64,000 nt of DNA from an uncultured Acidobacteriota bacterium (GTDB taxonomy: Bacteria; Acidobacteriota; Thermoanaerobaculia; UBA5066), in the NCBI GenBank assembly GCA_963776915.1, contig CAVZPE010000008.1, positions 34,124 to 98,123 of the forward strand, in the 5' to 3' direction. Position numbers and translations under genes: made by a program. How positions within the stretch are numbered: position 1 is the stretch's first letter; every line of letters begins with the position of its first letter. This document shows, one piece after another, positions 1,011 to 56,299 of this stretch. Below the pieces are notes generated by a model, which did not search any database, was not told the DNA's origin, and saw only the letters and a list, made by a program, of their open reading frames with translations.

Positions 1011-1074
1011 GCGCGGCGCGTCGGCGGGAACTTCCGCGCCGAAGCGCGGGTCTCTTCCGGGCGAGGAGACCGCC

Positions 1075-8184: not shown

Positions 8185-9360
8185 TCAGCGGGCGTGGGCC
8201 GCGCCCGCCGGACGCAGGCGCGCGCAGCCGCGGACGGAGACGACCGTGACGCCGCCCACCACGAGGAGGAGCGCCGCCGCGAGAAAGAGAAGGAGGGGGC
8301 CCCGGCGGCCGGACCGCTCCACGCCCATGCCGGCGGTGCGCTTCGGGCGCGCGAGGGGCGCCGTCGACTCCGTGAGCGTCGCCGGGCCGGCGGCGGGGAC
8401 GGCGGTCACGGGAGAGACGCGCGGCGGCGCGGGAGCCGGGACGGCCGGGACTTCGCGCGTCACGGCGCCGCGGGCCGGCCGCGCGGCGAGCTCGCGCCGC
8501 GCCATGAGGAGATCGAGGATCATCTGTCCCGCGCTTCCGTAGCGCTCGGACGCGTCCTTGCGGAGCGCGCGGGCGACGATCTGCTTGAGGACGTCCGGCA
8601 CCCGGTCCGGCTCGGGCCACGGGTCCGCCTCCTTCGTCATCATCTTGGCCACCATCTGGGTCACGCTCGCTCCCGAGAACGGGTGCGTGCCCGCGAGCAT
8701 CTGGTAGAAGACGATCCCGAACGAGAAGAGGTCCGACCGCTCGTCGAGCGGGTTCCCGAGCGCCTGCTCGGGCGACAGGTAGTCGAGCGTCCCGACGATC
8801 ATCCCTTCGCCCGTGTGGCGGGGCCCCCTGGAGGAGTCGCGCGCGCCCTCGAGGAGGATCTTGCTCAGGCCGAAGTCGAGGAGCTTCGCGCGCCCCTCCG
8901 GGGTGAGCATCACGTTCGACGGCGTGATGTCGCGGTGGAGGATCCGGTTCTGGTGGGCGACCTTGAGCCCTTCGAGGACCTGGATCGCGACGTCGACGCA
9001 CTCGTCGACGGTGAGCCGGCGCGCGTCCATGACCTCGTCGAGACCCTTCCCCTCGAGGTACTCGAGGACGAGGTAGAGGGCGCCCGGGGGGAAGCCCGCG
9101 TCCCGCTCGTCCGTCACGGCGAGGTCGTGCAGCGTGATGACGTTCGGGTGGTTCAGGGCCGCGACGGCGCGCGCCTCGTTCACGAACCGCCCGCGCATCT
9201 TCGCGTCCTCCTGGAGGCCGGCCGGGAGGACCTTGATCGCGACGCGGCGCCCGAGCGCGGGATCCGTCGCGAGGTAAACCTCCCCCATCCCGCCCTTGCC
9301 GAGCAGGCGGACGATCTCGTACCGGCCGATGCTGCGGGGGAGAACGTCCGCGGCCGCCAC
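8185..9360 (-). CDS. Ser/Thr protein kinase with C-terminal transmembrane anchor
   Basis: Hanks kinase motifs: GKGGMGEVY, AIK, HRDITPSNVML, DFG and SPEQ. A C-terminal TM helix follows. The 9978 ORF start would overlap the acetyltransferase gene, so I chose the in-frame GTG at 9360. Confidence 0.65.
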   Translation of the reverse strand: MAAADVLPRSIGRYEIVRLLGKGGMGEVYLATDPALGRRVAIKVLPAGLQEDAKMRGRFVNEARAVAALNHPNVITLHDLAVTDERDAGFPPGALYLVLEYLEGKGLDEVMDARRLTVDECVDVAIQVLEGLKVAHQNRILHRDITPSNVMLTPEGRAKLLDFGLSKILLEGARDSSRGPRHTGEGMIVGTLDYLSPEQALGNPLDERSDLFSFGIVFYQMLAGTHPFSGASVTQMVAKMMTKEADPWPEPDRVPDVLKQIVARALRKDASERYGSAGQMILDLLMARRELAARPARGAVTREVPAVPAPAPPRVSPVTAVPAAGPATLTESTAPLARPKRTAGMGVERSGRRGPLLLFLAAALLLVVGGVTVVSVRGCARLRPAGAAHAR

Positions 9361-9386
9361 TCGGAGGGCAAGTATAGGCGGGGATG

Positions 9387-18450: not shown

Positions 18451-19622
18451 CGTCGGCCGAGGTCCTCCTCGTCGTCTTCTCGGGCGCGGCGGGGGCCATC
18501 GCGGGCTCGTTCGCGAACGTCTGCATCCACCGGCTCCCGCGCGGCGAGTCCGTGGTGCACCCGCCGTCGCGGTGCCCGAAGTGCGGCACGCGCGTCGCGT
18601 GGCACGACAACGTCCCGGTCCTCTCGTGGCTCCTCCTCGGCGGGCGCTGCCGCGCGTGCGGCGCGCCGATCTCTCCGCGCTATCCGCTCGTCGAGGCCGC
18701 GGGCGCCGGGATCTTCGCCGGCGCCGTTCTCCTGTGGGGCCCGACGCCGGTCGCCGCGGGCGGAGCGCTCCTCGCGCTCGCCGGGCTGATCCTCGTCGCG
18801 ACCGACCTCGGGGCCCGCACGCTCCCGGACGAGGTCACGCTCGGGACCCTCGCGCTCGGCCTCGTCGTGGCCGCGGTCCGCGACCGGGCCGCGGCGGTTG
18901 CGGGCGAGCCGTTCCTCTCCGCGCACGGCCACCTCGCCGAGGCCGTGCTCGGCGCCGCGGCGGGGGCCGCGTTCCTCGAGCTCGTGCGGCGCGCGTACCG
19001 CGCCGTCCGCGGCCAGGAGGGAATGGGAGGCGGAGACGTCAAGATGCTCGCGATGGCGGGGGCGTTCACCGGCCCGGCGGGCGTGTTCCTGACGCTCTTC
19101 TTCGCCTCGCTCGCGGGGACGGTGGTCGCGGGCGGCGCGTCCCTCGCGCGCCGCCTGAGGTGGGCGTCCGCCTTCGGCGCGGCGCGGCACGACGCGGCCC
19201 GCGCGAGCGCCGTCGCCCGGCAGGCCGGCCTCCTCGTGGGCGACGACGGACGCGTCGCCGCCGCGGGCGCGCGCTGGCGCGAGGTCCCCGGCGCCGCCGC
19301 GGAAGGGGAGCCCGTCGGGGCCGATCGCCGGGCCGCCGGCCGGCTCGTCGCGTTCGTCCGCCGCGCCCGCATCCGCGCGCGGAGAGGCGAGGGCTCCGCC
19401 TCGGGCCGCCTCCCGGTCGACGACGGCGCCGAGCTCTTCCGCGTCCTCGCGGCCCGCGCGGGAGGAACGCCCGCGGGCCTCCTCGTCCTCCTCGCGCGCG
19501 TGGACGTCCCGTTCGGCGTCTTCCTCGCGGCGGGAGCGGTCCTCGCGTTCGTCTTCGGGCGCGCGGCGCTCGCGGCGATCTTCGGCCCGCTGTCGCCGTT
19601 CCCCGCGAGGCTCCTCCCGTGA
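18447..19622 (+). CDS. pilD: prepilin peptidase (A24 family) with about 100 aa Ala/Arg-rich insertion before the last TM helix
   Basis: N-terminal CPKCGTRVAWHDNVPVLSWLLLGGRCRACG zinc finger, and catalytic region ...GGGDVKMLAMAGAF. GTG overlaps the upstream stop. Confidence 0.8.
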   Translation: MTSAEVLLVVFSGAAGAIAGSFANVCIHRLPRGESVVHPPSRCPKCGTRVAWHDNVPVLSWLLLGGRCRACGAPISPRYPLVEAAGAGIFAGAVLLWGPTPVAAGGALLALAGLILVATDLGARTLPDEVTLGTLALGLVVAAVRDRAAAVAGEPFLSAHGHLAEAVLGAAAGAAFLELVRRAYRAVRGQEGMGGGDVKMLAMAGAFTGPAGVFLTLFFASLAGTVVAGGASLARRLRWASAFGAARHDAARASAVARQAGLLVGDDGRVAAAGARWREVPGAAAEGEPVGADRRAAGRLVAFVRRARIRARRGEGSASGRLPVDDGAELFRVLAARAGGTPAGLLVLLARVDVPFGVFLAAGAVLAFVFGRAALAAIFGPLSPFPARLLP

Positions 19623-21394
19623 CGAGCCGCTCGTTCGAGCGCGAGGTCCGAAACGTGATCGTCGGCGGCCTCGTGACGCTCCTGTTCCTCGCGGGCACCG
19701 CGGCGGTCGTGCTCCGCAACACGACGGCGTGGGGCGTCGGCGAGAACGAGAGGCGCCTGGCGCGCGAGACGCGGTCCGCCGCCGAGGCCCTCGCGGCGAG
19801 CGCCGGTCCGGCGCGCGCGCTCCTCGAGGATGCGGGACCCGGGCGGGCCCTGCGCGAGGGCGGGGCCCGGAGCGCCGCGCTCTACGACGCGCACGGCGCC
19901 CGGCTCGCGGACGCCCCGTTCCTCCCCGGCGCCGGAGAGGCCCCCACGCTCCTCGGCCCGGAGGACCTCGCGACGTCCGAGCCGCTCGTGCGCGGCGGGG
20001 CCGCCGGGCCCGTCGTCCTCGTGGCCCTCCCGGGCGGCGGGCGCGTCCTGCGCGTGGCGTGGAACGACCCCGCCGTGGCCGCCGTCCGCCGCAACGCGCG
20101 GATCGTCCTCGTCGCGGTTCCGGCGGCGGCGGCGGTGCTCGTCGTGCTCGTCGTCCCGTTCCTCCGGCGCCTCATGGCTCCGATCGACGCGATCGCCCAG
20201 ACGGCGCGCGGGGCCGGGGACCTCGTCCCCCAGGTGGCGGCGCGCGCGGTGCGCGACGAGGCCGAGGGGGCGGCCGAGACGTTCGTGCGGACCGTCGAGG
20301 CCCTCAAGAAGCGCACGGAGGAGCTCGAGGGGCTGAGGCGCTCCGAGCAGCGCCGGGCCGACGTGCTCGCCGTGACGGCCGAGACGCTCGTGCGCTCGCA
20401 CCCGGGCGGCCTGCTCGTCGTCGACGCCGCGGGCCGCCTCGCCGAGGCGAACGGCCCCGCCCGCGCCGTCCTGGACCTCGCTCCGGAGGACGTGGGCCGC
20501 CCCGCCGCCGAGGCGCTCGCCGACGTCCCGGCCCTCGCGGCCGCGGCGGAACGGGCGCGGACGGGAGCCCCGACGCTCTCGACCGAGCTCGACCTCGGCG
20601 AGGGCACCGGGGCCCGCCTCCTCGAGGTCATCGCGGTGCCGATCCTCGACGCCACCGAGACCGTGCTCGGCGCGCTTCTCTTCGTCGAGGACCGGACCCG
20701 GACGCGGCGCCTGGAGCGCGAGCTGTCCTCGAGGCGGGAGCTCGCCGCTCTCGGCGAGATGTCCGCCGGGATCGCGCACGAGTTCCGCAACGCGACCGGG
20801 ACGATCCTCGGCTGGGCGCGGCTCGCGGCCCGGACGGACGATCCCCGGCTCCGGGCGCGGCATCTCGCCGCGATCCAGGCCGAGGCCGAGCACGTCGCGC
20901 GCGTGACGGGAGACTTCCTCTTCTTCGCGAAGCCCGAGAGGCTGGAGACGGCGCCCTGCGACCTCGAGGCGCTCGCGCGGGAGATCGCCGCCGAGCAGAA
21001 GGCGCTCACCCCGGCGCTTCACGTGGCCGTCCGCGGCACGTTCGCTCCCGCCCAGGCCGACGCGGCGCTCGTGAAGCGCGCGCTCGTGAACCTCGTCAAG
21101 AACGCGTGCGAGGCCGCCTCCGACCGTCCCGGCGGCGGCCGCGTCGTCCTGTCCGGAGAAGGGGGAGGCGCGGAGACCGTCCGCGTCGCCGTCGAGGACG
21201 ACGGGCCCGGCGTGCCGGAGGAGGCCGCCGCGAAGCTCTTCGTCCCGTTCTACTCGACGAAGGAGACGGGCACGGGCCTCGGGCTCGCGCTCGTCGCGAA
21301 GATCGCGGCGCTCCACCGCGGGAGCGTTTCGGTCGAGCGGTCGCGCGACCTCGGCGGCGCGCGCTTCGTGCTCTCTCTGCCCGCCGCGACCTGA
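19619..21394 (+). CDS. membrane sensor histidine kinase (PilS-like candidate)
   Basis: N-terminal TM helices, HisKA (EMSAGIAHEFRNATGTILG), and HATPase_c (GGGRVVLS...DDGPGVP...GTGLGLALV). The start overlaps the pilD stop. Confidence 0.7.
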   Translation: MTSRSFEREVRNVIVGGLVTLLFLAGTAAVVLRNTTAWGVGENERRLARETRSAAEALAASAGPARALLEDAGPGRALREGGARSAALYDAHGARLADAPFLPGAGEAPTLLGPEDLATSEPLVRGGAAGPVVLVALPGGGRVLRVAWNDPAVAAVRRNARIVLVAVPAAAAVLVVLVVPFLRRLMAPIDAIAQTARGAGDLVPQVAARAVRDEAEGAAETFVRTVEALKKRTEELEGLRRSEQRRADVLAVTAETLVRSHPGGLLVVDAAGRLAEANGPARAVLDLAPEDVGRPAAEALADVPALAAAAERARTGAPTLSTELDLGEGTGARLLEVIAVPILDATETVLGALLFVEDRTRTRRLERELSSRRELAALGEMSAGIAHEFRNATGTILGWARLAARTDDPRLRARHLAAIQAEAEHVARVTGDFLFFAKPERLETAPCDLEALAREIAAEQKALTPALHVAVRGTFAPAQADAALVKRALVNLVKNACEAASDRPGGGRVVLSGEGGGAETVRVAVEDDGPGVPEEAAAKLFVPFYSTKETGTGLGLALVAKIAALHRGSVSVERSRDLGGARFVLSLPAAT

Positions 21395-22793: not shown

Positions 22794-24134
22794 TCAGTCG
22801 AGGCCGAGACGCCTGAGCCGGTACGACAGGTGGCTGCGCGAAACGCCGAGCCGGCGCGCCGCCTCCGCCTGGACTCCTCCGGCGTCGGCCAGCGCCCGCG
22901 CGACCAGCCCCCGCTCGAAGTGGTCGAGCTGCGCGCGAAGTCCGCCTTCGCTCTCCGGGGGGGCGGCCGATGGCGCGAGCGGCGGCAGGTCCCGGACCTC
23001 GATGCGGGGACCCCGTGCCAGGATCGCCGCGCGCTCCAGGAGATTTCGCAGCTCGCGGACGTTCCCGGGGAAGTCGTACGCCTGGAGCGCCGCGACGGCC
23101 TCCGGAGAGATGGACCGGGGCGCCAGCCGGAGGTCCCGCGTCACGGCCTCGAGCAGGTGCGCGGTCAGGAGCGGGACGTCCCCGCGCCGGGTGCGCAGCG
23201 GCGGCAGCGAGATCGGGACGACCGCGAGGCGGTAGTAGAGGTCCTCGCGGAACGTCCCGTCACGCACTCCCTGGAGGAGGTCGCGATGTGTCGCCGACAC
23301 GATTCTCACGTCCACGGTCCGCGAGGCGGTCGCGCCGATGTGCGTGACGCGCCCGTCCACGAGGACGCGCAGCATCTTGGCCTGGAGGGCCGGAGGCATC
23401 TCCCCGGCCTCGTCGAGGAAGAGCGTTCCCTTGTGCGCCGCCTCGAAGACGCCCGGGCGCGCGCGGTCGGCCCCCGTGAAGGCGCCGCGCTCGTGCCCGA
23501 AGAGCTCGCTTTCGAGCAGCGTCTCCGTGAAACCCGCGCAGTTCACGGCGAGAAACGGAGCGTTCGCGCGCCGGCTCGCGCGATGGAGGGCGCGCGCGAC
23601 GAGTTCCTTGCCCGTCCCGGTCTCGCCCGTGATCAGCACGGTCGCGTCCGTGGGGCCGACCCGGGCCACGAGCTCCTTGACGCGCGCCATCGACTCGCTT
23701 TCGCCGACGAGGTCCCCCCGGCCCGAGAGATCGCGAAGCTGGCCTTTCAGACGGTCGTTCTCGCGCAGGATCTCGGTGCGCTCCGCCGCACGGCCGATCG
23801 CGGCCAGGATCGTCTCGGGGACGAACGGCTTGCCGATCACGTCGAAAGCCCCCGCGCGCATCGCCGACACGGCGAGCTCGACCGTGGCGAACGCCGTGAG
23901 GACGAGGACGGGCACGAGCGGGTCCGCGGCGCGCATCTCCGCGAGGAGCGCGGTGCCGTCTCCGTCGGGGAGCTTCTGGTCGAGGACGATCGCGTCCCAG
24001 CTTCCGGCCGCGAAGGCACGCCGGGCGTCGGCGAGAGAACCCGCCTCGGACACCTCGTATCCCGCGGGGCGCAGGATCTCCACGAGGATCCGCCGGAGAT
24101 TGGGCTCGTCGTCAACCAGCAGCACGCGCGCCAC
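22794..24134 (-). CDS. sigma-54-dependent response regulator (NtrC family)
   Basis: Receiver (LLVDDE...D), AAA+ sigma-54 interaction domain (GETGTGKE, GAFTGA, ESELFGHERGAFTGA), and C-terminal HTH. I chose the GTG at 24134; the ORF ATG at 24242 adds a low-complexity N-terminus. Confidence 0.8.
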   Translation of the reverse strand: MARVLLVDDEPNLRRILVEILRPAGYEVSEAGSLADARRAFAAGSWDAIVLDQKLPDGDGTALLAEMRAADPLVPVLVLTAFATVELAVSAMRAGAFDVIGKPFVPETILAAIGRAAERTEILRENDRLKGQLRDLSGRGDLVGESESMARVKELVARVGPTDATVLITGETGTGKELVARALHRASRRANAPFLAVNCAGFTETLLESELFGHERGAFTGADRARPGVFEAAHKGTLFLDEAGEMPPALQAKMLRVLVDGRVTHIGATASRTVDVRIVSATHRDLLQGVRDGTFREDLYYRLAVVPISLPPLRTRRGDVPLLTAHLLEAVTRDLRLAPRSISPEAVAALQAYDFPGNVRELRNLLERAAILARGPRIEVRDLPPLAPSAAPPESEGGLRAQLDHFERGLVARALADAGGVQAEAARRLGVSRSHLSYRLRRLGLD

Positions 24135-25344
24135 GGGAGGCCTCCGGTTCGAGAGCGACGGACGGCGGAAGGGTGAGGGTGAACCGGACGTGCCCCGCGG
24201 CGTTCGAGGCGAGATGCACGTCTCCGCCGTGCTGCCTCGCAATCCCGCGCGCGATCGCGAGGCCGAGCCCGGTGCCGCGCGGACGGGTCGTGAAGAACGG
24301 CTCGAAGAGGCGCGGGACGGCCTCGGCGGGGACTCCCGGCCCGTCGTCCTCCACCTCGAGGGTCACGGAGTCCGGCCCGTGCCGGCAGACCAGGGAGACG
24401 CGGCCGCCGCGTCCGGCCGCCTCGACGCCGTTGAGGACGAGGTTCAGGAGAGCCTGCTGGAGCTGGTGCGGGTCGGCGTGCAGCACGAGCGCGTCGGGAG
24501 CCGAGCCTTCGACCGCGACGCCGCGGGCGTCCGCGTGCGCGCGGGCGAGCTCGACGACGTACCCGACGAGCGTCGTGGCGGCGGTCGGAGCCAGCCTCGG
24601 AGCCTTCGGGCCGGCGTAGGACAGGAAGTCGCCCGTGAGCGTCTCGAGGCGTCGGGCCTCCTGTGAGGCGATGGCACAGAGGGGCTCTGCGCCGGGGGTC
24701 GCGCAGCCCTTGCGTCGCGCGAGGTCGAGTGACGATACGATCATCGCAACCGGGTTCCGGATTTCGTGGGCGATCGCCGACGAGAGCCGTCCCACGGCGG
24801 CGAGCTTCTCCTCCTCCACGAGTCGATCGCGGGCCCGGCCCAGGTCGAGGAGGGACTCCGCGAGGCGAGCGCGTTCGTCACGGAGCTCCGAGACCAGGAT
24901 CGCGACGACGGCCGCCACCACGATGTAGATGAGGGCGACGCTCACCGCCTCGAACCACTCGTCCATCGTCACCGTGGCGTGAGTCCGCCCCCAGATGACG
25001 AGCTTGAGGAACGTCAGGCCGGTCACGATGGTGACGACGAACGCGATCCACGCGGGGGGCTTGCGGGCCGCGGCGGCGATGACCGGCAGGAGGAGAAGGA
25101 CGACGTAGTGGCTGTGCTCGAGCCCGCCCAGGAGCGAGAGGACGAACGCGAACGCGATGTTGAGCCCGATCGAGACGTCGGCCCACGCCGCAAGCGGTGC
25201 CGCCGCCGCCCCGTCGAGCCACGTGAGCTCGAGTGCCTGCATGAGAAAACGGCCCAGGAGCATGAAGAAGAAGGCGCGGGGCGGGGTCCCGAGGGCCGGT
25301 CCGAAGACGAGGTGGGCGACGACGATTCCCGCGAGCATCGTCAT
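24112..25344 (-). CDS. membrane sensor histidine kinase, partner of the downstream sigma-54 regulator
   Basis: Five or six TM helices, then HisKA (LSSAIAHEIRNP) and HATPase_c (DDGPGVP, GTGLGLAI). It overlaps the RR gene by 23 nt. Confidence 0.75.
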   Translation of the reverse strand: MTMLAGIVVAHLVFGPALGTPPRAFFFMLLGRFLMQALELTWLDGAAAAPLAAWADVSIGLNIAFAFVLSLLGGLEHSHYVVLLLLPVIAAAARKPPAWIAFVVTIVTGLTFLKLVIWGRTHATVTMDEWFEAVSVALIYIVVAAVVAILVSELRDERARLAESLLDLGRARDRLVEEEKLAAVGRLSSAIAHEIRNPVAMIVSSLDLARRKGCATPGAEPLCAIASQEARRLETLTGDFLSYAGPKAPRLAPTAATTLVGYVVELARAHADARGVAVEGSAPDALVLHADPHQLQQALLNLVLNGVEAAGRGGRVSLVCRHGPDSVTLEVEDDGPGVPAEAVPRLFEPFFTTRPRGTGLGLAIARGIARQHGGDVHLASNAAGHVRFTLTLPPSVALEPEASRGARAAG

Positions 25345-30119: not shown

Positions 30120-30700
30120 CGCCGTGAAGGGCCGCCTCTCGTGTCGCCCGTCCCGGCGCCCCGCGCGCGGGTCGAGCTTCGTCGAGGTCCTCCTCGCGAT
30201 GACGATCATGGCGCTCGTCCTCGTCGGGATCCTCCAGATGTTCTCGGTCTCCCTCGTGATCAACAAGGGCTCGGCCGCCCGCACGCAGATGCTCTTCCGC
30301 TGCCAGCAGGTCGTCGAGAACATCCGGTACTTCTACTTCCTGAACCGCAACGCGACCGCCACGCCCGCGCTCCTGACGGACACGGCGGCACGTGTCCGCG
30401 TCGCCGATGACGGTGCCCGGGACGCTGCCGATTCCCCTGAGCGACGTCGCGCAGACGTTCCTGCCCTACGCCGCGACGGACGCGACGTGGCCCTACTGGG
30501 GCCCGACCGGGGCCAACGTCATGGAGCAGGAGAACGGCCCGTACAAGATCTCGTACACGATCCAGAGGGACGCGGCCCAGAGCACGCTGGGTCGTGACGG
30601 TGTCCGCGATCCCGACCGACGTCGGGACGGCGACGCGCTATTTCGGAGTCGGCCTCACGGGCGGCGGCAAGCGGGTGGACTATGTGGCGCAGTTCCAGTA
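30112..30700 (+). CDS. minor pilin (PilV-like), two frameshifts (about 30395, about 30590)
   Basis: SSFVEVLLAMTIMALVLVGIL prepilin helix in frame 1. It continues as TVPGTLPIPLSDVAQTFLPYAATDATWPYWGPTGANVMEQENGPYKISYTIQRDAAQSTLG in frame 2, then VTVSAIPTDVGTATRYFGVGLTGGGKRVDYVAQFQ stop in frame 3. Confidence 0.55.
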
Positions 30701-31978
30701 GGCGTCCGGTGCGCGCCGCGGGCGGCTTCACGCTCATCGAGGCGATGGTGTCGCTGCTGCTCCTCGTCATCGTCCTCACGGTCGCGATGACGATGCTCTT
30801 CCAGATGCGCGCCTTCGCCGAGCGGCAGCAGTTCTACATGCTGCCCCGCCAGACGGCGCGGCGGGTCGCCGACTACCTCTCGTACTACGTCGCGGGCGCC
30901 TCGGACCTGAACGACCGCACGACCCCGCGCACGAGCCCGAACGCGCTCGTCATGTACTACAACCTCGCGGGCGCCCCGGTCCAGGCGTCGTACGACAACC
31001 TCAGCGGCGGCGAGGCGGGCAACGCGATCACGGTGGCCGGCGTCTCGACGAAGTTCGGGGACATCGGGACGGACGTCCTCACGCTCGTCGCGCCCACGAA
31101 CCCGGCGAAGTACCTCGTGTCGCCGCCGTTCCCGGCGCTCGGGACCGGCGTCGATCTCTACTTCAACTTCCGGGGCGGATGCGCCGGAGGCGATGCGGCG
31201 AACATGACGGCGTTCCAGGCCGCGACGGGCTTCGACGGCACGCAGAGCGCGCTCCTCACGCTCATCGACCGCAACGGCAACTGGATCTACTTCCGCATCC
31301 CGGCGGCGGGCTACGTCGCCGGCGGCCTGTGCACGGACGTCACGACGTTCCGGAACATCCACGTCCAGGCCGACACCCAGGCGGCGGGCCTCCCGGCGCC
31401 TCCGAACGGCACGGCGAACCTCGCGGATCCCGTCTCGCTCGTCACGGGCATCCAGGTCATCTCCTTCCGCATCCTGACGGATCCGGTGGACAACGTGCCG
31501 AAGCTCCAGCAGAAGCTCGACCTCTTCGATCCCGCCACCGACAATCCGGGAACCGCGTTCGTGAACGTCATGGAGAACGTCGAGGACCTGCAGGTCACGT
31601 ACGTCTACGCGACCGAGCCCGCCGCCGGCACCGGGACGTTCTGGAACACGGCGAGCCAGACGCTCGCCGGGGACGCCGTGCCCCCGCAGGCCGGGCCCGT
31701 GGCCATCCCCGGCCCGACGGACATCACGAACGTGATCGGCATCCGGTTCTCGGTCACGTCCCGCTCGCCGCGGCTCAGCCTCGGCGCCCAGGGCCTGACG
31801 AACGTGCGCAGCACGGAGGACCTCTCGACGACGACGAGCCTGCACTTCCGGCCCGCGTCGGAGAACCACCCGGTGACGATGGACCCGTTCGTGCCGACGC
31901 GGCCCGCTCTACGACCTCTTCGACCACTATCGGGCGACGGCGATGCTCATGCTGCGCAACCGGACGCTCGGGAGCTGA
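30682..31978 (+). CDS. minor pilin PilW-like (frameshift about 31900)
   Basis: Leader ...AAGG then FTLIEAMVSLLLLVIVLTVAM. The long body runs to ...PVTMDPFVPTRPA. The C-terminus LYDLFDHYRATAMLMLRNRTLGS is in the +1 frame, with its stop at 31976-31978. Confidence 0.6.
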
Positions 31979-31983
31979 CGGCG

Positions 31984-32634
31984 ATGACATCGATGACCAC
32001 GAAGAACCGCGGCAGCGCCCTCGTCTCGGTCATCCTCGTGCTCCTCGTCCTCACGATCGTGGGCGTCGGCATCGCGTACTTCACGTCGATGGAGGACCGC
32101 CTCTCGGGCAACACGCGGATCGCGAAGGCGGCGTTCTACGCCGCGGACGCGGGCCTCCGCCGCGCCGAGCTCGCGTTGAGCGACACGGCCGGCCTCACGA
32201 GCACCTGCGCGCCGATCACGCTCACCCAGATCCTGAGCACCGGCTCGACGCCCGTGCTCAACGTGCCGGGCGGCGGCAACGCCGCGATCCCCCTGGACCT
32301 CACGAGCTTCAACGCGGTCGGGTGCCTCCCGGCGGTGGACCAGATCAAGTACCTCGACATCCCGGTTCCCGTCGTGGCCGGGACGCCGGTGGTGGACCGC
32401 GCGACGTACTCGCTCTACGTGAGGAACAACCTCGACGACACGGCGGGCACGCCGACGACCGACGCGGACAACATCGTCAACATCGTGGCCGGTCGGGACG
32501 GTGCAGCTCGTGGCCGGCACGTCCTTCACGCGCATCCTCGAAGAGCAGGTCATCCTCTCGGTGGGAGGTTCGTTCGGCAGCAGCCAGAAGAACCTGAACG
32601 CCGGAGGCACGGGCACCGCGCAAAGGAGAGCTCC

Positions 32635-32638
<4 letters not shown>
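31984..32638 (+). CDS. PilX-like pilus assembly protein (frameshift about 32495)
   Basis: N-terminus MTSMTTKNRGSALVSVILVLLVLTIVGVGIAYFTSMEDRLSGNTRIAKAAFYAADAGL (PilX N-domain). The C-terminus ...GTVQLVAGTSFTRILEEQVILSVGGSFGSSQKNLNAGG is in another frame. The stop overlaps the pilY1-like ATG (ATGA). Confidence 0.6.
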
Positions 32639-37816
<5,178 letters not shown>

Positions 37817-43517: not shown

Positions 43518-44500
43518 CGATCGCCCGCTTCCTGCGTCCCGCCGCCGTCCTCGCTCCTCGCGCTCGCGATTCCCGCGGCGGCCAAGGACGTCTACAAGGC
43601 CTTCCTCGACCCGGGCATTCCGCAGCACAAGGCGACGCTCGACATCCTCGCGCGCCTGGAGCAGACCCCGAACGACGCGACGCTCCACAACGACCTCGGC
43701 TGCCTGATCGCGCGGGACGGCTTCTGGCGCGACGCCCTGCGCGAGTTCGAGACGGCCGAGAAGCTCGACAAGAAGGACGGGCGCGCTCCCTACAACGCGG
43801 GTCTCGTCGAGACGACGCGCGGGGAGTGGGGCGCGGCGCGCTCCGCGTTCAAGAAGGCGGTCTCGCGGAACCCGGGCAACTGGCCCGCCTGGTGGATGCT
43901 CGGGTTCGCCGAGGAGAAGCTCGGGAACCCGGACGCGGCCGTGGACGCGTACGCGACCGTCGCTGCGCGTCGACACGTCGCTCTTCGACGTGAAGCGCAA
44001 TCCCTACGCGGTGCAGTCGCGTCTGAAGGCGCGCGTCCTCCTCAAGACGTACGACGCCCGCTTCGCCCGCGCCGCCCTTCCGGTCACGGAGCAGCTCGCC
44101 CGGCCCGACATCCTGACCTCGTTCCAGGCCGGCCACGTGTCGGTCACGTCGGCGCCCGGCGCCGCCGTTCCCGAAGACGCCCTCGTGCGGACGTCGCGCG
44201 GCAGCGGGCCCGGCGGCGGCGCCGTCGCGGTCCCCTCCTCGGGCGGCGCGGTCGTGACGTCCGTTCCCCCGGTGAGCTCGAGCCGTCCCGCGGCGCCGGC
44301 GGCACCCGTGACCGGCGCGCCCGCGGCGCCGGGCCGGCCCGGCGGCCTGGAGGAGGCTCCGCCGTGGTTCCCCGCAGACGTCGCCCGCCGGGCCCGCGCC
44401 CGTGCGGACGCCCCGCCCGGCGGGCAACCCGGATCCCGGGGGCGCCTCCGCCCGACCCCGGCCCCGACGGCCCGCCGCCCCGGGCCCCGGCATCGGCTGA
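43514..44500 (+). CDS. TPR-repeat lipoprotein/secreted protein (at least two frameshifts; 3' end uncertain)
   Basis: Signal-peptide-like MTIARFLRPAAVL(LLALAIPAAA), restored by a 1-nt shift near 43550. TPR-like body (NDLGCLIARDGFWRDALREFETAEKLDKKDGRAPYNAGLVETTRGEWGAARSAFKKAVSRNPGNWPAWWMLGFAEEKLGNPDAAVDAYATV). A Pro/Ala-rich tail follows in another frame. Confidence 0.45.
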
Positions 44501-44504
44501 CGAG

Positions 44505-45847
44505 TCAGCCCTTCCACTTCGGCACGAAGAGCGTCGGGGCGCCGGCACCGCCGCCGGCGGCCGGGATGAACTTCAGGTCGTCCCCGACCGCCTCGACGCC
44601 GCGCAGGAGCTCCGAGAGCCGCCCCGAGAGGAGCGTCTCGGAGACGGCGTCGGTCGCGCGCCCCTTCTCGACCCAGTAGCCGGCGACGTGCAGGCGGAAC
44701 CGGTCCGCCGCGAGGTCGACCTGGGGCCGCGAGAGAAGCACGGCCGCGTAGAACCCCTTGACGAGGGCGCGGAGGAGGTCGAGGGGCGGAACGCCGGACG
44801 AGGGGTCGACGAAGAAGTTCGTGACGCCGATCGCGGGCGGCTCGGAGAACGCGCGGCGGAACGCGTTGCCCGTGGGCTCGGTCCCGAGACGCTGCGCGGC
44901 GGCGACGTCCGTGAGGCGCGACGCGAGGCGCCCGCGGTCGAGGACGACCGTCCGGCGCTGCGGGGTGCCCTCGCCGTCGTGCGTGGTCCGCACGGGACCG
45001 CCCGGCGCGCTCGCGGCGTCCACGAGGGTGAGGGCCGGCGCGGCGAGCGCGTCGCGCCCCTCGCGCGTTCGGGCCGCGAGGAGGCCGTCCTCGTCCTCCC
45101 CGAAGAAGGCCGGCGCCACGCGTGCGACGAGCGGCGCGGCGACGAGCGGATCGAGCAGGAGGTCCCAGCGCCCCGGCTCGAGGGGCCGGCCCTTCAGCGG
45201 GAGGAGCACGCGGTCGACCGCGTGGTGCGCGAGGCGCGCGAGCGCGAGCTCCTCCGGGCGCGCGGCGGCCGCGACGACGCGCGCGGACGCGCGGCCCGCG
45301 CCCGTGCGGGCCGACACCGTCGCGACGAGGGTCGCGAAGGCGCTTCCGAACGTGACGTCGCGCCCGGCCGTCGTCGCGACGCGCTCGGTGCGCGCTCCGA
45401 GCGCGAGCGCCGCCTCGCCGAGGAGGACCGCGCCGTCGCTCGCGGCCGCGAGCGCGCGGCGGAACGCGACGAGGAGCGCGCGCGCGGCGATCTCGTCGGG
45501 ACGCGGGGGCGGCGCGAGGGGCGCGGGGGGACGCGGCTTCGGGCAGCGGCGGGCGACGGGCGGGCTCCGCGGCGCGTGCGGGCCCGGGCCAGGAGGAGGC
45601 GCGCCTCCGCGGGCAGGGCCCGGGCGCCGTCGGCCCCGGACGCCGCGAACGACGTGCGGCCCGCCCGGAACTGGCGCACGGCGAAGCCGCGCTCGGACGA
45701 GACGCTCGCGTGGAGGCCGCGCTCGTCCTCGACGAGCTCGAGCGCCGTCCCGCGGCGCTCGTAGACCTCGCCGCCCTCGCCGTCGTGCGCGAAGGAGGAC
45801 GCCGCGGCGAGGACGTCCTCGAAGAGGCCGTCGGAGGGCGCCCTCAC
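44505..45847 (-). CDS. pmbA: TldD/PmbA-family metalloprotease PmbA (frameshift about 45550)
   Basis: The N-terminus starts at GTG 45847 ([49 protein letters not shown]; the ORF track begins at ATG 45844, MRAPSDG...). The C-terminal half is in ORF 44505..45317 (...GFYAAVLL...LKFIPAAGGGAGAPTLFVPKWKG). Confidence 0.6.
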
Positions 45848-47199
45848 GGCCGCCCCCGAGGGCCGTGAGGCCGCGCAGGAGAACGGCCGGGGAGGCGCCG
45901 CCGACGGGCAGCGGCTCGCCGCGCTTGACGCACAGGCCGAGGCCGCTCGCGGGCGCGGCGGCCTCGCCCGGCTCGCCGTAGAGCTGGCGCAGCGCCGTCA
46001 GGACGTCGGACGTCAGGAGGAACGGGCGCGACCGGGGCGCCGAGGCGCCCGCGCCGCACGAGGTCGGCGCTCTCGACGAAGAGCGAGAACCGGCCGGACT
46101 CGGGATCCGTGTGGCCGGCCGAGATCTCGCGGACGTAGAGGCCGTTCCCGCAGGCGTCGAGGAGCTCGTCGCGGCTCGCGCGGCCGGCCGCCACGAGGAG
46201 CGTCGAGAGGCGGGGGCGCGGAGGCCGGCGGAAGTCGCCGCAGCGGCCGTGCCCGTTCGAGGCGGCGCCGGACGTCCGGCGGTCCGTGAGGACTCCCGTC
46301 ACGCGGCCCTCCTCGAGGAGCGGGACGGGACGCGCGGGCGTCCCCTCGTCGTCCGCGAGATAGGAGCCCGGCAGGTCGCGGCGCGTCGGGTCGCACGTCA
46401 CGGAGAACCCGGGCGGCGCGACCGCGGCGCGCGCGACGCGCGTGAGGACCGAGGAACGCTCGCCGCTCTCGGCCTCCAGCGGGTGGCCGACCGCCTCGTG
46501 CCAGAAGACGGAGGCCGCTTCCGGCGAGAGGACGACGTCCACCCGGCCGTCGGGCGCGCGGTGCGCCGGCACGGGTCGCGTCGCCTCCGCGAGGGCCTTC
46601 GCGAAGGCGTCGCACGCGGCGGAAAAGGGGGCCGAGGACTGGAAGGCGAAGCTGCGGCTCGCGGCCGTCCGGCGCAGCACGCCCGTCGCCTCCAGCCGGG
46701 TGGCGTCGCCGCACGGGACGAAGTCCCGGCCCGTGACGACCGCGCGCGAGACCGTCACGCGCGCGATCGCGAGCGTCAGCGAGAGGCCGCGGGGGTCGGG
46801 GAGGGCGCGGGCGAGCGCGGCCGCGAGCTGCGTCGCGCGTCCCTCCTCGTCCGGGCCGGACGGACCGCGATCGTCGCGGCGGGGCGGCGGGTTCTTCGTC
46901 TTGAAGAACGGCGCGCCGCCGGCGCGCTGCGAGGCCTCGCGCACGGCCTCGCGAAGCGCCTCGGCTCCGTCGCCGTCGCAGGCGACGAGGAGCGAGTCCC
47001 TGCCCTTCGAGACGCGCACCGCGGTCCCGCGCTCCTCGACGATCGACGGCGCCTGGAGCCCCGCCTCGGTCGCGCTCCAGGTGATCGCGCGGCGCCGCTC
47101 GCGGAAGGCCTCGCCTCCCTCGCCGCGGCGCAGCATCCCCGAGACGATGCGGACCGCGTCCTCCGCGTCCTCGCGGAAGACCGTGACGTCGTCGCTCAA
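45844..47199 (-). CDS. tldD: metalloprotease TldD (two frameshifts near the 3' end, one in a GGGGG run)
   Basis: HEAVGHPLE motif. The C-terminal segment [55 protein letters not shown] is in another frame. Its stop TGA overlaps the pmbA GTG. Confidence 0.65.
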
Positions 47200-52528: not shown

Positions 52529-52530
52529 GA

Positions 52531-52712
52531 CGGAAGAGAGAACGGAAGAAGAGACGGATTGGAAGACAATAGAAGAGGAAGATTTTCCTAGAAGGGTGTG
52601 TGGGGCCGTGGCAGTTCGCTTCGGCGGCACATCCCCGCGGCGCCGGCGCCTTCCCCTCTTCACCTTCTAAGAAAACCCTTTCTTCTCTCTCTTTCTCTCT
52701 CTCTTCTCTCTC
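52531..52712. repeat. palindromic element copy E2 filling the convergent intergenic gap: arms TTTTCCTAGAAGGGTG / CACCTTCTAAGAAAA flanked by a long homopurine tract (left) and homopyrimidine tract (right)
   Basis: Left arm 52584-52600, right arm 52654-52676. GA-rich tract 52531-52583 mirrors the CT-rich tract 52677-52710. The region is markedly AT-richer than its surroundings. Confidence 0.55.
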
Positions 52713-52715
52713 GCC

Positions 52716-54653
52716 CTAATTCTTGAAGGGCACCTCGACGGCGAGCCAGGTCTTCACCTTCACGCCGTTCTTCGTCGCGGGCTTCCAGCGCCACTGCTGG
52801 AGCGCCTGGACGCTCGAGGCCCCGAGGCCGACGACCGGGGTCACGTCCCTCAGGAGCTCGACCTTGGCCGGCTTGCCGTTCTCGTCGATGAGGACGCGCA
52901 GGAGGACGGTGCCCGAGACCCGCCTCTGCCTCGCCATCGGCGGAACGAGGGGGCTGACCTGACGCGTCGGGACCGGCGGCGTGTCGCAGTTCTCGATGTC
53001 GACGAAGTCTCCTTCCTTCACGGCGGGCGCGGTCGGCACGGCGGCGGCCGCCGCCTGGGCCTCCTCGCGCCGCTTCGCGGCGCCCGCGCGGGCGAGACGC
53101 GCGGCCTCCTCGCGGTCGGCCCGGTCGCGCGCGAGGCGCGCCGCGTCCTCGACGTCGCGGGCCTTGTGCGCCTCCTCGGCGGCCGCTTCGATGTCGGCCT
53201 GTTTCTTCTTCGAGGCGGCGTCCTGCTGCCGGGCGGTTCGCGCCTCCTGTTTCCGGAGCTCCTCGTCGAGCCGCTTCTGGACGGCCGCCTGGAAGAGAGG
53301 GTCGTCCTTGCCGACGACGACGGGCGCGGGCGTCGGGACCGGCGTCGGCGGCGCCGCGGTCGGCCGGGGCAGGGGCGTCGGCGCCGGGGCCCGGGCGGGA
53401 GCCGAGGGCCTCAGCGCGAAGTAGGCGCCCGCCGCGAGGACCGCGGCGCCGCCGAGCGCGACGGCCCAGACCGGCACGCCGCCCATCGGCTTCTTCGGCG
53501 GTCCGGTCATCATCCTCACGGGCGCCGTGCCCTTCGCGGGCGCGGGCCGGGCGGGCGGCGGAGGCACGACCGGCTGGCGGCGCGAGCCCGTGGTCGAGTC
53601 CGCCTTGCGGCCGGGCCCCGTCGCGTCGGGCTTCGCTTCCCCGCCGCTCGCCTCGACACGCCGTCGCCCGGTCGTCTCGGCGCCGGATCGGGCGGCCGCG
53701 AGCGCCGCGGGGTCGAGCGCCTCCTCGGCGTCCATCTCCGCCCTCTCGCGCTGGATCGCGCGATCGAAGTTCTTCTGGAGGAAGAACGCGAGGTTGAAGG
53801 TCGAGGGGGCGTACGGGCCCCCGTAGAGGAGGGCCGAGAGGTCGCGCCGGTATCCGGCGACGCTGCGGTCGCGCGTCTCCGGGTCGGGGTGGAGCGCGCG
53901 GCGCAGGAGGCGCCGGATGTCCTCGGGGACGGGCGTCCCGTCGATCGCGAGGGTCGACGTCTCGACCGCCTCGAGGGCGACGCCCGGGAGAGGAGGCTTG
54001 CCGGTGAGCATCTCGAAGAGGATGGCGCCGACGCCGTAGATGTCGCCGGGCGTCCCCGGCTTGCCGGAGGCCAGCACCTCCGGGGCGACGTAGGGCGCGA
54101 AGGCCTGCCGTGCGCGCGGCGAGGCGAGCGAGGGCAGGAGTCCGGCTCCGAGGCCGTACCCGAACACGCGGGCCTCGCCCTCGTTCGACACGGAGACGAA
54201 CGCCGGGACGAGGAACCCGTGCGGGGCGCCCGTGTAGCGCTCGACGGCGGCTCCGGACTCGAGAGCGGTCATCAGGCGCTCGGCGATCAGGAGGCCGTGC
54301 TCGGCGGGCATCGCCGCTCCGAGGAGACGCGCCGCGAGGAGGACGTCGAGCGTGCGGCCCTCGACGTACTCGACCGCGAGGAACGGCGTGTCGTCGATGA
54401 CGCCGAGGACCGTGCCGCGCGCCACCGCGGGGCCCCTGGTCTCGTCGACGAGGGCGACGGCCGTCTCCATCGCGGCCAGGAGCGCCGTCCGGTCGACGGC
54501 CGCCGACGTGAAGGTCCGGACGAGGTGGAAAGGCTGCAATCGCGGGGCTCCCGCCGTGCCGCCGCGCCACACCTCGCCGAGCGGGTCGCTCCCGATCGCG
54601 CGCGTGAGGATGTACGGCCCGAAGGGCCGCGGGCTGGCTGCGGATGCGCTCAT
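52716..54653 (-). CDS. Ser/Thr pseudokinase domain - TM helix - TonB C-terminal domain fusion protein
   Basis: N-terminal kinase-like fold with an APE motif but no GxGxxG, HRD or DFG. TM helix VPVWAVALGGAAVLAAGAYFAL. Pro-rich region and charged coil. C-terminal TonB_C (VSGTVLLRVLIDENGKPAKVELLRD...QWRWKPATKNGVKVKTWLAVEVPF). 645 aa, intact. Confidence 0.65.
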   Translation of the reverse strand: MSASAASPRPFGPYILTRAIGSDPLGEVWRGGTAGAPRLQPFHLVRTFTSAAVDRTALLAAMETAVALVDETRGPAVARGTVLGVIDDTPFLAVEYVEGRTLDVLLAARLLGAAMPAEHGLLIAERLMTALESGAAVERYTGAPHGFLVPAFVSVSNEGEARVFGYGLGAGLLPSLASPRARQAFAPYVAPEVLASGKPGTPGDIYGVGAILFEMLTGKPPLPGVALEAVETSTLAIDGTPVPEDIRRLLRRALHPDPETRDRSVAGYRRDLSALLYGGPYAPSTFNLAFFLQKNFDRAIQRERAEMDAEEALDPAALAAARSGAETTGRRRVEASGGEAKPDATGPGRKADSTTGSRRQPVVPPPPARPAPAKGTAPVRMMTGPPKKPMGGVPVWAVALGGAAVLAAGAYFALRPSAPARAPAPTPLPRPTAAPPTPVPTPAPVVVGKDDPLFQAAVQKRLDEELRKQEARTARQQDAASKKKQADIEAAAEEAHKARDVEDAARLARDRADREEAARLARAGAAKRREEAQAAAAAVPTAPAVKEGDFVDIENCDTPPVPTRQVSPLVPPMARQRRVSGTVLLRVLIDENGKPAKVELLRDVTPVVGLGASSVQALQQWRWKPATKNGVKVKTWLAVEVPFKN

Positions 54654-54702
54654 CGACTCCGAGACGATTGCGCCTCAGTCTACCAGCCGGCGGCGGGCGG
54701 CG

Positions 54703-55773
54703 TCAGGGCGTCGCGCGTTCCTCGCGTGCCGCGCGCCTCGCCTCGTGGTATCGGGCCGCATTGCGCTGCTGCTCCTCGTAGTCGGTCGCGAACAGGTGCG
54801 ATCCGTCGCCCGCGGCCACGAAGTAGCGGTAGTCGACGTCGGCGGGCGCGACCGCCGCGCGCAGCGACGCGAGCCCGGGATTGCAGATCGGCCCCGGCGG
54901 GAGCCCCGCCCGCACGTAGGTGTTGTAGGGCTCGTCGACCGTGAGCTCCGAGCGCGCGAGCGAGCCGCGCCACCGCCCGAGCCTCTTCAGCGCGTAGATC
55001 GTGGTCGGATCGCACTGGAGGAGCATCCCGGCGCGGAGGCGGTTGCGATAGACGGCCGCGACGACCGGGCGCTCGGCCGCGAGCGACGTCTCCTTCTCGA
55101 CGAGCGACGCGAGCGTCGTCGCCTCGAGGACGCCGAGGTTCATCGCCTTCGCCTTCTCGGCGAAGTCGGCGGGGAGCCGGCGCGCGAACTGGCGCGTCAT
55201 GGAGGCGAGGATCTCGCGCGCCGTCATCGAGCGCGTGATCGTGTAGGTGTCGGGGAAGAGGAACCCCTCGAGCGTCGGGGAGCCCGCGGGGACGCCCTCG
55301 AACTCGGCCGGGCGCGTGAAGAGGAACTCGTAGTCCTTCTGGGCCGCGAAGCCCTGCGACGAGAAGAGCGAGAAGACCTCGTCCGCCGTGAACCCCTCGG
55401 GCACCGTGATCCGGTACGTCACGACGTCCCCGGCCACGAGGGACAGGACGACCTGGTCGGGGGCGCGCGGCCCCGCGAAGCGGTACTCCCCGGCCTTGAG
55501 GGTCTTGCCGCGATGGAAGACCTTCAGCGCGACCATCCCGAGCCGCCAGTCGCGCAGGACGCCGAGGCTCTCGAGCCGGGTGAACACGGCCGCCGAGGGC
55601 GTCCGCGGCGCGATCGAGACGATGACCTCGTCTTCCGCGTAGCCCTTGTACGGGGCGTGGACGCCGTACATGAGGAGGCCGAAGCCGACCGCGCCCGCGA
55701 GCAGCGTGAAGAGCGCGACCCAGAGCAGCAGGGGGACGAGGTGGCGCTTGTGGATCGCCGGCGCGCGGCTCAC
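54703..55773 (-). CDS. mltG: endolytic murein transglycosylase MltG (YceG family)
   Basis: N-terminal TM helix, then a YceG-like domain (LQCDPTTIYAL, EPYNTYVRAGLPPGPICNPG). Confidence 0.8.
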   Translation of the reverse strand: MSRAPAIHKRHLVPLLLWVALFTLLAGAVGFGLLMYGVHAPYKGYAEDEVIVSIAPRTPSAAVFTRLESLGVLRDWRLGMVALKVFHRGKTLKAGEYRFAGPRAPDQVVLSLVAGDVVTYRITVPEGFTADEVFSLFSSQGFAAQKDYEFLFTRPAEFEGVPAGSPTLEGFLFPDTYTITRSMTAREILASMTRQFARRLPADFAEKAKAMNLGVLEATTLASLVEKETSLAAERPVVAAVYRNRLRAGMLLQCDPTTIYALKRLGRWRGSLARSELTVDEPYNTYVRAGLPPGPICNPGLASLRAAVAPADVDYRYFVAAGDGSHLFATDYEEQQRNAARYHEARRAAREERATP

Positions 55774-55783
55774 CAGAGTCGCC

Positions 55784-56215
55784 TCACGCCGCGCCGCCGG
55801 CCCGCGCCGCGAGCCAGTCCCGAAGGAGAACGGCGGCGGCCTCGGCGTCCCTGAGGCCGACCCGGTCCCGCGCGGCGACCCCCGCCGCGTCGAGAGCGGC
55901 GTCGGCGGCGACCGAGGTCAGCGCCTCTCCGTGGAGGTCGACGGGCAGGCCGCAGGCCTCCCCGACGCGGCGCGCGAAGTTGCGGGCCCGCCGTGCGATC
56001 GGGCCTTCGCTGCCGTCGAGGTTGCGCGGGAGCCCGACGACGACGCGGGCGACCTCGCGCTCTTTCGCGGCGCGGGCGACGTCCGCGGCCGCCTGGGCGT
56101 CGCTCGTGCGCGCCACGGCACCGACGGGCACGACGACGCGTCCGGTCTCGTCCGAAACCGCGAGGCCGATCCGCTTCTCGCCGAAGTCGACCGCGAGGAC
56201 GCGCACGAGTCTCAT
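55784..56215 (-). CDS. ruvX: Holliday junction resolvase-like RuvX/YqgF
   Basis: MRLVRVLAVDFGEKRIGLAVSDETG... 143 aa. Confidence 0.8.
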   Translation of the reverse strand: MRLVRVLAVDFGEKRIGLAVSDETGRVVVPVGAVARTSDAQAAADVARAAKEREVARVVVGLPRNLDGSEGPIARRARNFARRVGEACGLPVDLHGEALTSVAADAALDAAGVAARDRVGLRDAEAAAVLLRDWLAARAGGAA

Positions 56216-56299
56216 CGTAGGAGGCCCCCTCGGTGAAGTCCACTCCGGATACAATCGGCGTCCTTCGGCGGCGCCCGCCGCCTCGGAGAGTCCAGGACC

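Follow-up and report, generated by a model that had tools for sequence, protein, structure and literature searches.

The known architecture closest to that of the protein described here comes from the Agl-Glt gliding machinery of Myxococcus xanthus, where GltJ (AgmX) and GltG (PglI) have the same order of parts. In GltJ, a cytosolic region that serves as a partner-binding switch is followed by one transmembrane (TM) helix, a flexible region and a periplasmic TonB-C domain (PMC11135422). Here we analyze one gene in a 64-kb stretch of DNA (contig CAVZPE010000008.1, positions 34,124 to 98,123; hereafter the window) from an uncultured bacterium of the phylum Acidobacteriota, class Thermoanaerobaculia. 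The gene, a complete coding sequence at positions 52716..54653 on the minus strand of the window, is predicted to encode a bitopic inner-membrane protein that joins a cytoplasmic pseudokinase domain to a periplasmic TonB_C domain, and we refer to this protein and its homologs as the pseudokinase-TonB_C family. It differs from GltJ in phylum and in its cytosolic part, which is a kinase fold where GltJ has ZnR and GYF modules. The model for the C-terminus of AgmX/PglI (NF033768) scores 14.1 bits on the protein against a cutoff of 40, and we found no agl/glt gene cluster in the examined neighborhoods of family genes.

Pseudokinases attached to membranes have been described in other phyla. EssB/YukC is a monotopic membrane pseudokinase, with three degraded catalytic motifs, that recruits the type VIIb secretion machinery (PMC12599244). 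It shares with the protein studied here a cytoplasmic pseudokinase on a membrane protein, but it belongs to Firmicutes and to a secretion context, it carries another extracytoplasmic domain, and apart from the kinase fold we observed no significant similarity between the two. The bacterial pseudokinase families covered by a 2025 review are ActPs1-3, GLW, CP1, DLHK and DYD, and this review mentions neither TonB nor Acidobacteria (PMC12599244). In the mainly proteobacterial GLW family, GLW replaces HRD and Leu/Trp (a poly-Leu motif) replaces the β3 lysine (PMC12599244). We considered membership in this family and rejected it, because the pseudokinase-TonB_C proteins have HGF (HG-φ) and LVR (Arg) at these positions. 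In Mycobacterium tuberculosis, a membrane-tethered pseudokinase linked to MviN (MurJ) controls peptidoglycan synthesis as a phospho-dependent docking site for an FHA protein. That protein differs in being actinobacterial and in being fused to a flippase and not to TonB_C, and we saw no FHA or active-kinase genes neighboring a family gene.

Both sequence and fold place the kinase-like domain nearest to the PASTA-type Hanks kinases (PknB, StkP, Stk1 and IreK), which likewise join a kinase fold in the cytoplasm through one TM helix to an extracytoplasmic module that faces the cell wall. These are active enzymes with PASTA repeats, whereas the pseudokinase-TonB_C protein appears catalytically dead and ends in TonB_C.

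Results

A kinase-like domain and a TonB_C domain in one predicted protein

The gene has an ATG start, 645 codons and a stop codon, and the sequence GGAG lies 4 nt 5' of the ATG. Its GC content is uniform at third codon positions (GC3 0.95) and 0.56 at second codon positions (GC2), in the range of real genes in this ~72% GC window, and full-length homologs range from 86% down to ~22% identity. These features support the intact 645-amino-acid (aa) gene that a preliminary description of this DNA had called.

Pfam TonB_C (PF03544) matched aa 571-644 with E=9.3e-13 and 48.9 bits (cutoff 24.6), TIGR01352 (tonB_Cterm) scored 39 bits (cutoff 27.1), and a family profile matched this region to the TonB2 structure 2k9k (E=3.8e-7). 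The Pfam Pkinase model passed its cutoff marginally, and over the C-lobe only (E=6.4e-8, 32.7 bits, cutoff 31.7). Searching the PDB with phmmer matched aa 7-283 to StkP, PknE and PknB (E~1e-10), and the family profile found the kinase fold in the PDB with E=1.6e-14. An AlphaFold2 (AF2) model of the protein, built from 114 homologs, had a mean predicted local distance difference test score (pLDDT) of 80.5, with values above 90 across most of aa 11-320 and of 88-95 in the TonB_C domain. A Foldseek search of the PDB with this model recovered PknA, Stk1, PknI and PknB (E~1e-13; target-normalized template-modeling scores 0.67-0.76). In the model, the N-terminal ~285 residues adopt a bilobal Hanks protein-kinase fold. 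The two domains named in the preliminary description are therefore both significant above curated cutoffs, marginally so for Pkinase, and the kinase fold is confirmed by the PDB searches and by AF2 with Foldseek.

From N- to C-terminus, and all on the minus strand, we assign the following parts. The cytoplasmic Hanks-type pseudokinase domain (aa 8-283; 53805..54632), assigned from all of the kinase searches above, is followed by a conserved signature motif (aa 277-300, YGGPYAPSTFNLAFFLQKNFDRAI; 53754..53825) that AF2 predicts to be helical, and by a cytoplasmic linker of low conservation (aa 329-391; 53481..53669) that is probably disordered (pLDDT below 50 for aa 326-392). The TM helix (aa 392-415, GVPVWAVALGGAAVLAAGAYFALR; 53409..53480; AF2 helix 395-413) is the only hydrophobic peak of the protein, as the preliminary description had it; this segment is rich in Gly and Ala and has neither a His nor an SxxxH motif. 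A Pro-rich periplasmic spacer comes next (aa 416-446, 27% Pro; 53316..53408), identified by composition and predicted to be disordered over aa 420-443. Beyond it, a VVGKxDPLF motif (aa 447-454) leads into a long helix rich in Ala, Arg, Glu and Lys that runs to aa 535 (53049..53315), as judged from AF2, conservation and composition. Residues G448, D451, P452 and F454 in this region are invariant within the Thermoanaerobaculia clade, and the helix is modeled without interruption over 84 residues (aa 452-535, pLDDT ~80-89) and resembles domain II of TolA. The periplasmic TonB_C domain (aa 560-645; 52719..52976), supported by the Pfam, TIGR01352, 2k9k and AF2 results, completes the protein. The Pro-rich spacer and the terminal TonB_C domain had been foreseen in the preliminary description; the 84-residue helix between them had been missed.

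Because an N-terminal signal sequence is absent, we place the kinase-like part in the cytoplasm and TonB_C in the periplasm. Across the family, the TM flanks carry 2.75 Lys/Arg residues on the N-terminal side versus 1.70 on the C-terminal side, in weak agreement with a cytoplasmic N-terminus. We regard this anatomy as near certain.

Loss of catalytic residues

We read motif equivalences from a profile alignment to StkP and from a BLASTP alignment to an intact Hanks kinase encoded elsewhere in the window (8188..10023, minus strand). The latter is a canonical Ser/Thr kinase (Pfam Pkinase, 166.8 bits; kinase domain ~8530..9339), and the whole kinase domain aligned with that of the pseudokinase-TonB_C protein at 22% identity (E=9e-14). 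The Gly-rich loop GKGGMG of the window kinase corresponds to GSDPLG (G21-S-D-P-L-G26), and its β3 VAIK corresponds to LVR, in which R46 replaces the lysine. Its catalytic loop HRDITPSN is represented by HGFLVPAF, with H145-G-F147 at the place of HRD, V149 at that of the catalytic-loop Lys and F152 at that of the catalytic Asn. The Mg-binding DFG is replaced by GYG (G165-Y-G167). The end of the activation segment, SPE in the window kinase, is kept as APE (190-192).

The preliminary description had stated that GxGxxG, HRD and DFG are gone and that only APE is kept. The losses are as it described, and the list of what is kept is longer: the HRD His, the two outer Gly residues of the Gly-rich loop, D204 of subdomain IX and R261 of subdomain XI are also retained. 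We define a pseudokinase by sequence as a kinase fold without at least one of the β3 Lys, the HRD Asp and the DFG Asp; all three are missing here. Judged from its sequence, this protein has lost every residue needed for Mg-ATP binding and phosphate transfer.

As a separate observation, the window kinase has GKGGMG, VAIK, HRD, DFG and SPE intact, appears from these motifs to be active, has a C-terminal hydrophobic segment, and directly adjoins a gene for a receptor-like outer-membrane protein (5133..8084, minus strand).

A family conserved in two classes of Acidobacteriota

A first homolog search returned 396 matches, with full-length identities from 86% to ~49%, and the named ones were all metagenome-assembled genomes of Acidobacteriota/Thermoanaerobaculia. 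A genome scan added full-length relatives in Holophagaceae at 28-29% identity, and a search seeded with one of these uncovered a Holophagae branch that includes the cultured Geothrix fermentans, G. limicola and G. oryzisoli as well as complete Geothrix genomes. A profile search of 1.84 billion representatives gave 887 clusters (50% identity) at E≤1e-30; among the best 150 of these 887, nearly all were matched end to end and were 560-770 aa long. A third search, seeded with distant members, returned 1221 proteins at E≤1e-20, named only from Acidobacteriota. The source names of all named members fall within this phylum (Thermoanaerobaculia and Holophagae). In 70 diverse representatives, TonB_C was matched in 63 and Pkinase in 54. 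The order of pseudokinase, TM helix, Pro-rich spacer and TonB_C given in the preliminary description holds and is conserved in the family.

The loss of catalytic motifs extends across the family. Among 489 full-length members, HRDxK and GxGxxG occur in none, DFG in 4 and a VAIK-like motif in 4, and HG-x-φ-x-P is present in 471. H145, G146 and P150 show little or no variation, R46 is found in ~97% of proteins in both classes, and the Gly-rich loop carries an invariant Asp. F147 and F152 are conserved in the Thermoanaerobaculia clade. The classes differ at the DFG position (GxG versus DAP) and at the position of the HRD Asp (Phe versus Val/Leu/Ile). As H145-G146 and R46 are common to both classes, the pseudokinase state predates their split, and the conservation of the replacement residues indicates selection for a non-catalytic role.

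The post-kinase motif, with the consensus PTTFNLAFFMHxLFR, is present in 488 of the 489 proteins and is the most conserved segment of the family, with a between-clade identity of 0.45 versus 0.24-0.30 for the kinase lobes and TonB_C. G279, F286, A289 and F296 are invariant across both classes, and AF2 predicts helices at aa 285-295 and 297-311 (pLDDT ~90). The pseudokinase domain is conserved to the same degree as TonB_C.

Members are labeled in source databases as 'TonB family protein', 'energy transducer TonB', 'outer membrane biosynthesis protein TonB', 'protein kinase' or 'serine/threonine-protein kinase'. Many carry a TonB label because TonB_C is the only domain that passes Pfam there. 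Literature searches for this domain combination turned up no account of such an architecture. As a functional entity, the family appears undescribed; the domain combination itself is already visible in database annotations.

Comparison with TonB

The pseudokinase-TonB_C protein shares with TonB the C-terminal TonB_C domain, the Pro-rich periplasmic spacer and a single anchor with a periplasmic C-terminus. It differs in the position of this anchor, at residue ~395 behind a cytoplasmic region of ~390 aa with a kinase fold, whereas TonB proteins generally have no cytoplasmic domain (PMC8262864). It differs further in its extra 84-residue spacer helix, in the lack of SxxxH and in the lack of visible linkage to exbBD. 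A segment of TM strength follows the kinase domain in 129 of 132 family representatives and is the sole such segment of the protein in 114. None of these 129 helices contains SxxxH, any His at all is found in 4 of the 132 TM segments, and a small-xxx-small motif with Gly occurs in 107 of the 129, which is compatible with helix-helix packing. We also considered whether the helix is unusually poorly conserved, which might have spoken against a motor partner, and rejected this, as its conservation resembles that of the other parts of the protein; our argument from the helix uses the missing SxxxH only. The preliminary description had set the protein apart from classic TonB and from anti-sigma architectures, and on both counts we agree.

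The window itself supplies an ordinary TonB-family protein for comparison, a short one of 244 aa (1075..1809, plus strand; TonB_C 63.8 bits) whose N-terminal anchor, FAVSAAAHAALAAALVV, carries SxxxH (VSAAAH). Its TonB_C domain is 32% identical to that of the pseudokinase-TonB_C protein (E=6e-14). Genes for a Rieske oxygenase and an amino-acid permease follow this short TonB, and no exbBD was seen adjoining it.

The only TonB-dependent-receptor-like outer-membrane protein in the window (5133..8084, minus strand; CarboxypepD_reg and OMP_b-brl_4) is encoded near the short TonB and 45 kb from the pseudokinase-TonB_C gene. No exbB/exbD and no TonB-dependent receptor or transducer adjoins the latter in the window, or its relatives in ~20 related loci, so the adjacent TonB-dependent transducer for which the preliminary description had suggested looking was not found. 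Its proposal that the protein couples TonB-box partners in the outer membrane to a pseudokinase scaffold is plausible and is not supported as stated; envelope genes recur adjacent instead.

Gene neighborhood

In the window, the pseudokinase-TonB_C gene is the last of a string of three genes on the minus strand. Directly upstream, at a distance of 49 bp, lies mltG (54703..55773; Pfam YceG, E=9.5e-77), which encodes a YceG-family endolytic murein transglycosylase, and the string begins with ruvX (yqgF; 55784..56236; Pfam RuvX, E=2.8e-35, and synteny). A convergent thioredoxin/DsbA-like gene ends the string. We consider mltG and the pseudokinase-TonB_C gene probable operon partners. Promoters and terminators were not found in a scan of 52300-56600, which is uninformative at 72% GC.

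The order ruvX-yceG-X, where X is the family gene, was found in 13 loci (the window, L001-L008, L015, L016, L019 and L020) and on the contig of the family member P0264. In L019, L020 and P0264, X either shares only ~35% identity with the window protein or falls into a different subgroup. The outer flanks are different as well and contain genes for a nonribosomal peptide synthetase, an LpoB-like lipoprotein, a short-chain fatty-acid transporter and an E1 dehydrogenase. Because the order is kept although X has diverged and the outer flanks differ, the arrangement goes beyond general synteny.

Other loci place further envelope genes beside the family gene. A PASTA-domain protein, BamD and a LysM protein are encoded directly upstream in L023 (2753..7833). 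In L021 (6543..14330), an LapB-like protein with tetratricopeptide repeats (TPR) is encoded upstream, and a HIT protein, a TPR-Slt lytic transglycosylase, FtsE and FtsX are encoded downstream. An LpoB/CsgG-like lipoprotein gene adjoins the family gene in L019 (10099..10728). This recurrence of peptidoglycan and envelope neighbors points to cell-wall homeostasis over nutrient-receptor signaling.

The Holophagae loci have a different neighbor. In all four, a protein of 210-222 aa is encoded directly upstream on the same strand as the family gene (L017, 9245..9913; L018, 9282..9914; L009, ~9269..9865; L010, ~430..1026), with 55-59% identity among loci. Searches of Pfam, NCBIfam and the PDB gave no match to it, and neither the window nor the Thermoanaerobaculia loci contain a copy; it may be a partner specific to this clade.

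One database relative, P0003 (1020 aa), appears to fuse YceG to X, and we considered it as a physical link to MltG. We rejected this candidate: beyond about residue 270 its MltG part becomes nonsense rich in Arg, Ser, Thr and Pro and runs on into the next gene, the mark of a frameshift within its mltG, and topology would in any case rule out such a fusion.

Other features of the window

Several features lie apart from these loci. A 1-kb tandem array (32928..33928) consists of ~83 copies of the 12-bp unit CGACGCCGACGC with 72% matches and overlaps the 3' end of an open reading frame (ORF) that contains PilX_N (30682..33609). In the frame of this ORF the array encodes Asp/Ala-rich repeats and in another frame Thr-Pro repeats, and the ORF may merge more than one gene. 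GC content is unusually high at 16001..20000 and 44001..46000 (0.785-0.798), and the first of these regions has a strong negative AT skew (-0.29 to -0.37). The sole match of a 777-aa ORF at 16-18 kb is to YfhO, in its C-terminal part, and confident ORF calls are sparse at 18.5-21.4 kb. A sigma-54-dependent two-component pair (22794..25344, minus strand) comprises an AAA+/HTH_8 response regulator and a HisKA/HATPase_c histidine kinase; its called ORFs overlap, and their start sites call for revision.

Discussion

From the domain structure and the gene neighborhood, we propose that the pseudokinase-TonB_C protein is a non-catalytic, envelope-spanning adaptor in the inner membrane that is tied to cell-wall upkeep and is not a TonB energy transducer driven by the proton motive force. 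We hold this reading with about even confidence, and the partner logic in it is much less certain than the anatomy. On standard geometry, the spacer would span ~9 nm as an extended Pro-rich segment and ~12.6 nm as a helix, long enough to cross the periplasm, and TonB_C would sit at the face of the peptidoglycan or the outer membrane. There it would bind a TonB-box-like strand of an outer-membrane or periplasmic protein by β-strand addition, the established behavior of TonB_C domains. On the other side, the dead kinase domain and the signature helix would offer a cytoplasmic or membrane partner a surface for docking or allosteric control. By physically connecting the outer envelope with the cytoplasmic face, the protein would then act as a scaffold or signal relay in peptidoglycan and envelope homeostasis. 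We assign it a role at the cell wall because it is probably co-transcribed with mltG, the gene for a glycan-strand terminase. Precedents for this reading are GltJ, with its cytosolic switch on a TonB-C protein (PMC11135422), EssB/YukC, with its membrane pseudokinase as a scaffold (PMC12599244), and MltG of Enterococcus faecalis, which is reported to be a target of the Hanks kinase IreK (PMC12369325). A phosphoproteomics paper on pneumococcal StkP reportedly mentions MltG as well.

Several points weigh against this adaptor reading. The pair ruvX-mltG is itself common, and X may merely have landed beside it; linkage to mltG is absent in Holophagae. Several of the neighbor names in L019, L021 and L023 fall below curated cutoffs, and the neighbors in a further locus (L022) are uninformative. 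The window MltG has a cytoplasmic tail of only ~12 residues, which makes regulation through a cytoplasmic MltG domain, as in Firmicutes, unlikely. In Holophagae members the Asp of DFG is still in place, and, as far as sequence tells, family proteins may yet bind nucleotides or have some non-canonical activity. An exbB/exbD pair may be encoded outside the 64-kb window. Finally, the mechanism draws on domain logic and gene neighborhood, and its partners on both sides of the membrane are postulated.

A more specific version, to which we give a small chance, is that the family is a diderm equivalent, rebuilt in non-catalytic form, of the PASTA kinases with which Gram-positive bacteria sense their cell wall. 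TonB_C would report the state of the peptidoglycan or outer membrane by binding or releasing a TonB-box-like strand, the signal would cross via the single TM helix, and the dead kinase with its PTTFNLAFF helix would allosterically switch a cytoplasmic partner. Candidates for this partner would be an active Hanks kinase, a protein of FHA type that reads the conserved Thr-Thr, or the machinery for cell-wall synthesis and turnover associated with MltG.

We consider it similarly unlikely that the protein is a purely structural tether for envelope integrity or division, without signaling, in which the kinase-like domain serves as a plug or oligomerization module. In TolA, a long, charged helical domain in the periplasm precedes a small C-terminal domain with a TonB-like fold, and the same order of helix and TonB-like domain is found here: the Ala/Glu/Lys/Arg-rich helix and the TonB_C-type domain resemble TolA domains II and III. 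A role in envelope integrity or division would fit the FtsE/FtsX, Slt, LysM, BamD and LpoB-like neighbors, and the Gly-rich TM helix with its frequent small-xxx-small motif also speaks for such a tether. However, the protein differs from TolA in its large cytoplasmic domain and in lacking the SxxxH (SHLS-type) anchor, no tolQ, tolR, tolB or pal was seen in the examined neighborhoods, and the conservation of the pseudokinase and of the post-kinase motif exceeds what a passive plug would need.

Less probable still is a genuine TonB paralog, coupled to ExbB/ExbD and serving TonB-dependent receptors, to which the pseudokinase was added as a regulatory module. The TonB_C domain is genuine by curated cutoffs, the Pro-rich spacer is of TonB-like length, and a receptor-like outer-membrane protein is encoded elsewhere in the window. 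Genes for TonB are often unlinked to exbBD, and NCBI annotates many members as 'energy transducer TonB' or 'TonB family protein'. These names, however, stem from the only domain that reliably passes Pfam. Against such a paralog stand the SxxxH motif, absent from every family TM helix scored and present in the short TonB of the window, the internal anchor behind a long cytoplasmic region of a kind that TonB generally lacks (PMC8262864), and the ~20 loci in which neither exbB/exbD nor a receptor adjoins the gene.

We think it very unlikely that the protein is a cryptic enzyme that, upon periplasmic binding, would phosphorylate, AMPylate or glutamylate through migrated or non-canonical residues, as do SelO and SidJ. 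Some so-called pseudokinases have turned out to be active, as is reported for glutamylation by SidJ (10.1101/2021.04.13.439722). In the family itself, the β3 Lys position has a conserved R46, the clade of the window protein retains E63, and Holophagae have the Asp at the DFG position. Yet the HRD Asp, the catalytic-loop Lys and Asn and, in this clade, the DFG Asp have given way to conserved Phe, Val, Phe and Gly, the Gly-rich loop carries its invariant Asp, and no alternative conserved acidic or basic cluster is apparent among the invariant columns. The possibility, raised in the preliminary description, of a frame error joining a kinase-like gene to a tonB gene can be dismissed: the YceG fusion seen in P0003 is explained by a frameshift in its own mltG, GC3 is uniform over the gene, and the same unbroken architecture recurs as full-length homologs in hundreds of independent assemblies, complete genomes of cultured Geothrix among them.

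Acidobacteriota rank with the most abundant bacteria of soil, and their envelope biology is almost unexplored. The labels 'energy transducer TonB' and 'protein kinase' that members of this family carry are probably both wrong, and they distort counts of TonB systems and of kinases in the genomes of this phylum. The family joins a scaffold of kinase fold to a domain that binds TonB boxes, two modules that are each well understood, in a combination for which we found no earlier report. A pseudokinase version beside mltG would extend to cell-wall control the principle seen in GltJ, in which TonB_C is combined with a cytoplasmic switch, and the sensor counterpart outlined above, if true, would be a previously unknown mode of trans-envelope signaling in Acidobacteriota. 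Orthologs in cultured Geothrix species make the question directly testable.

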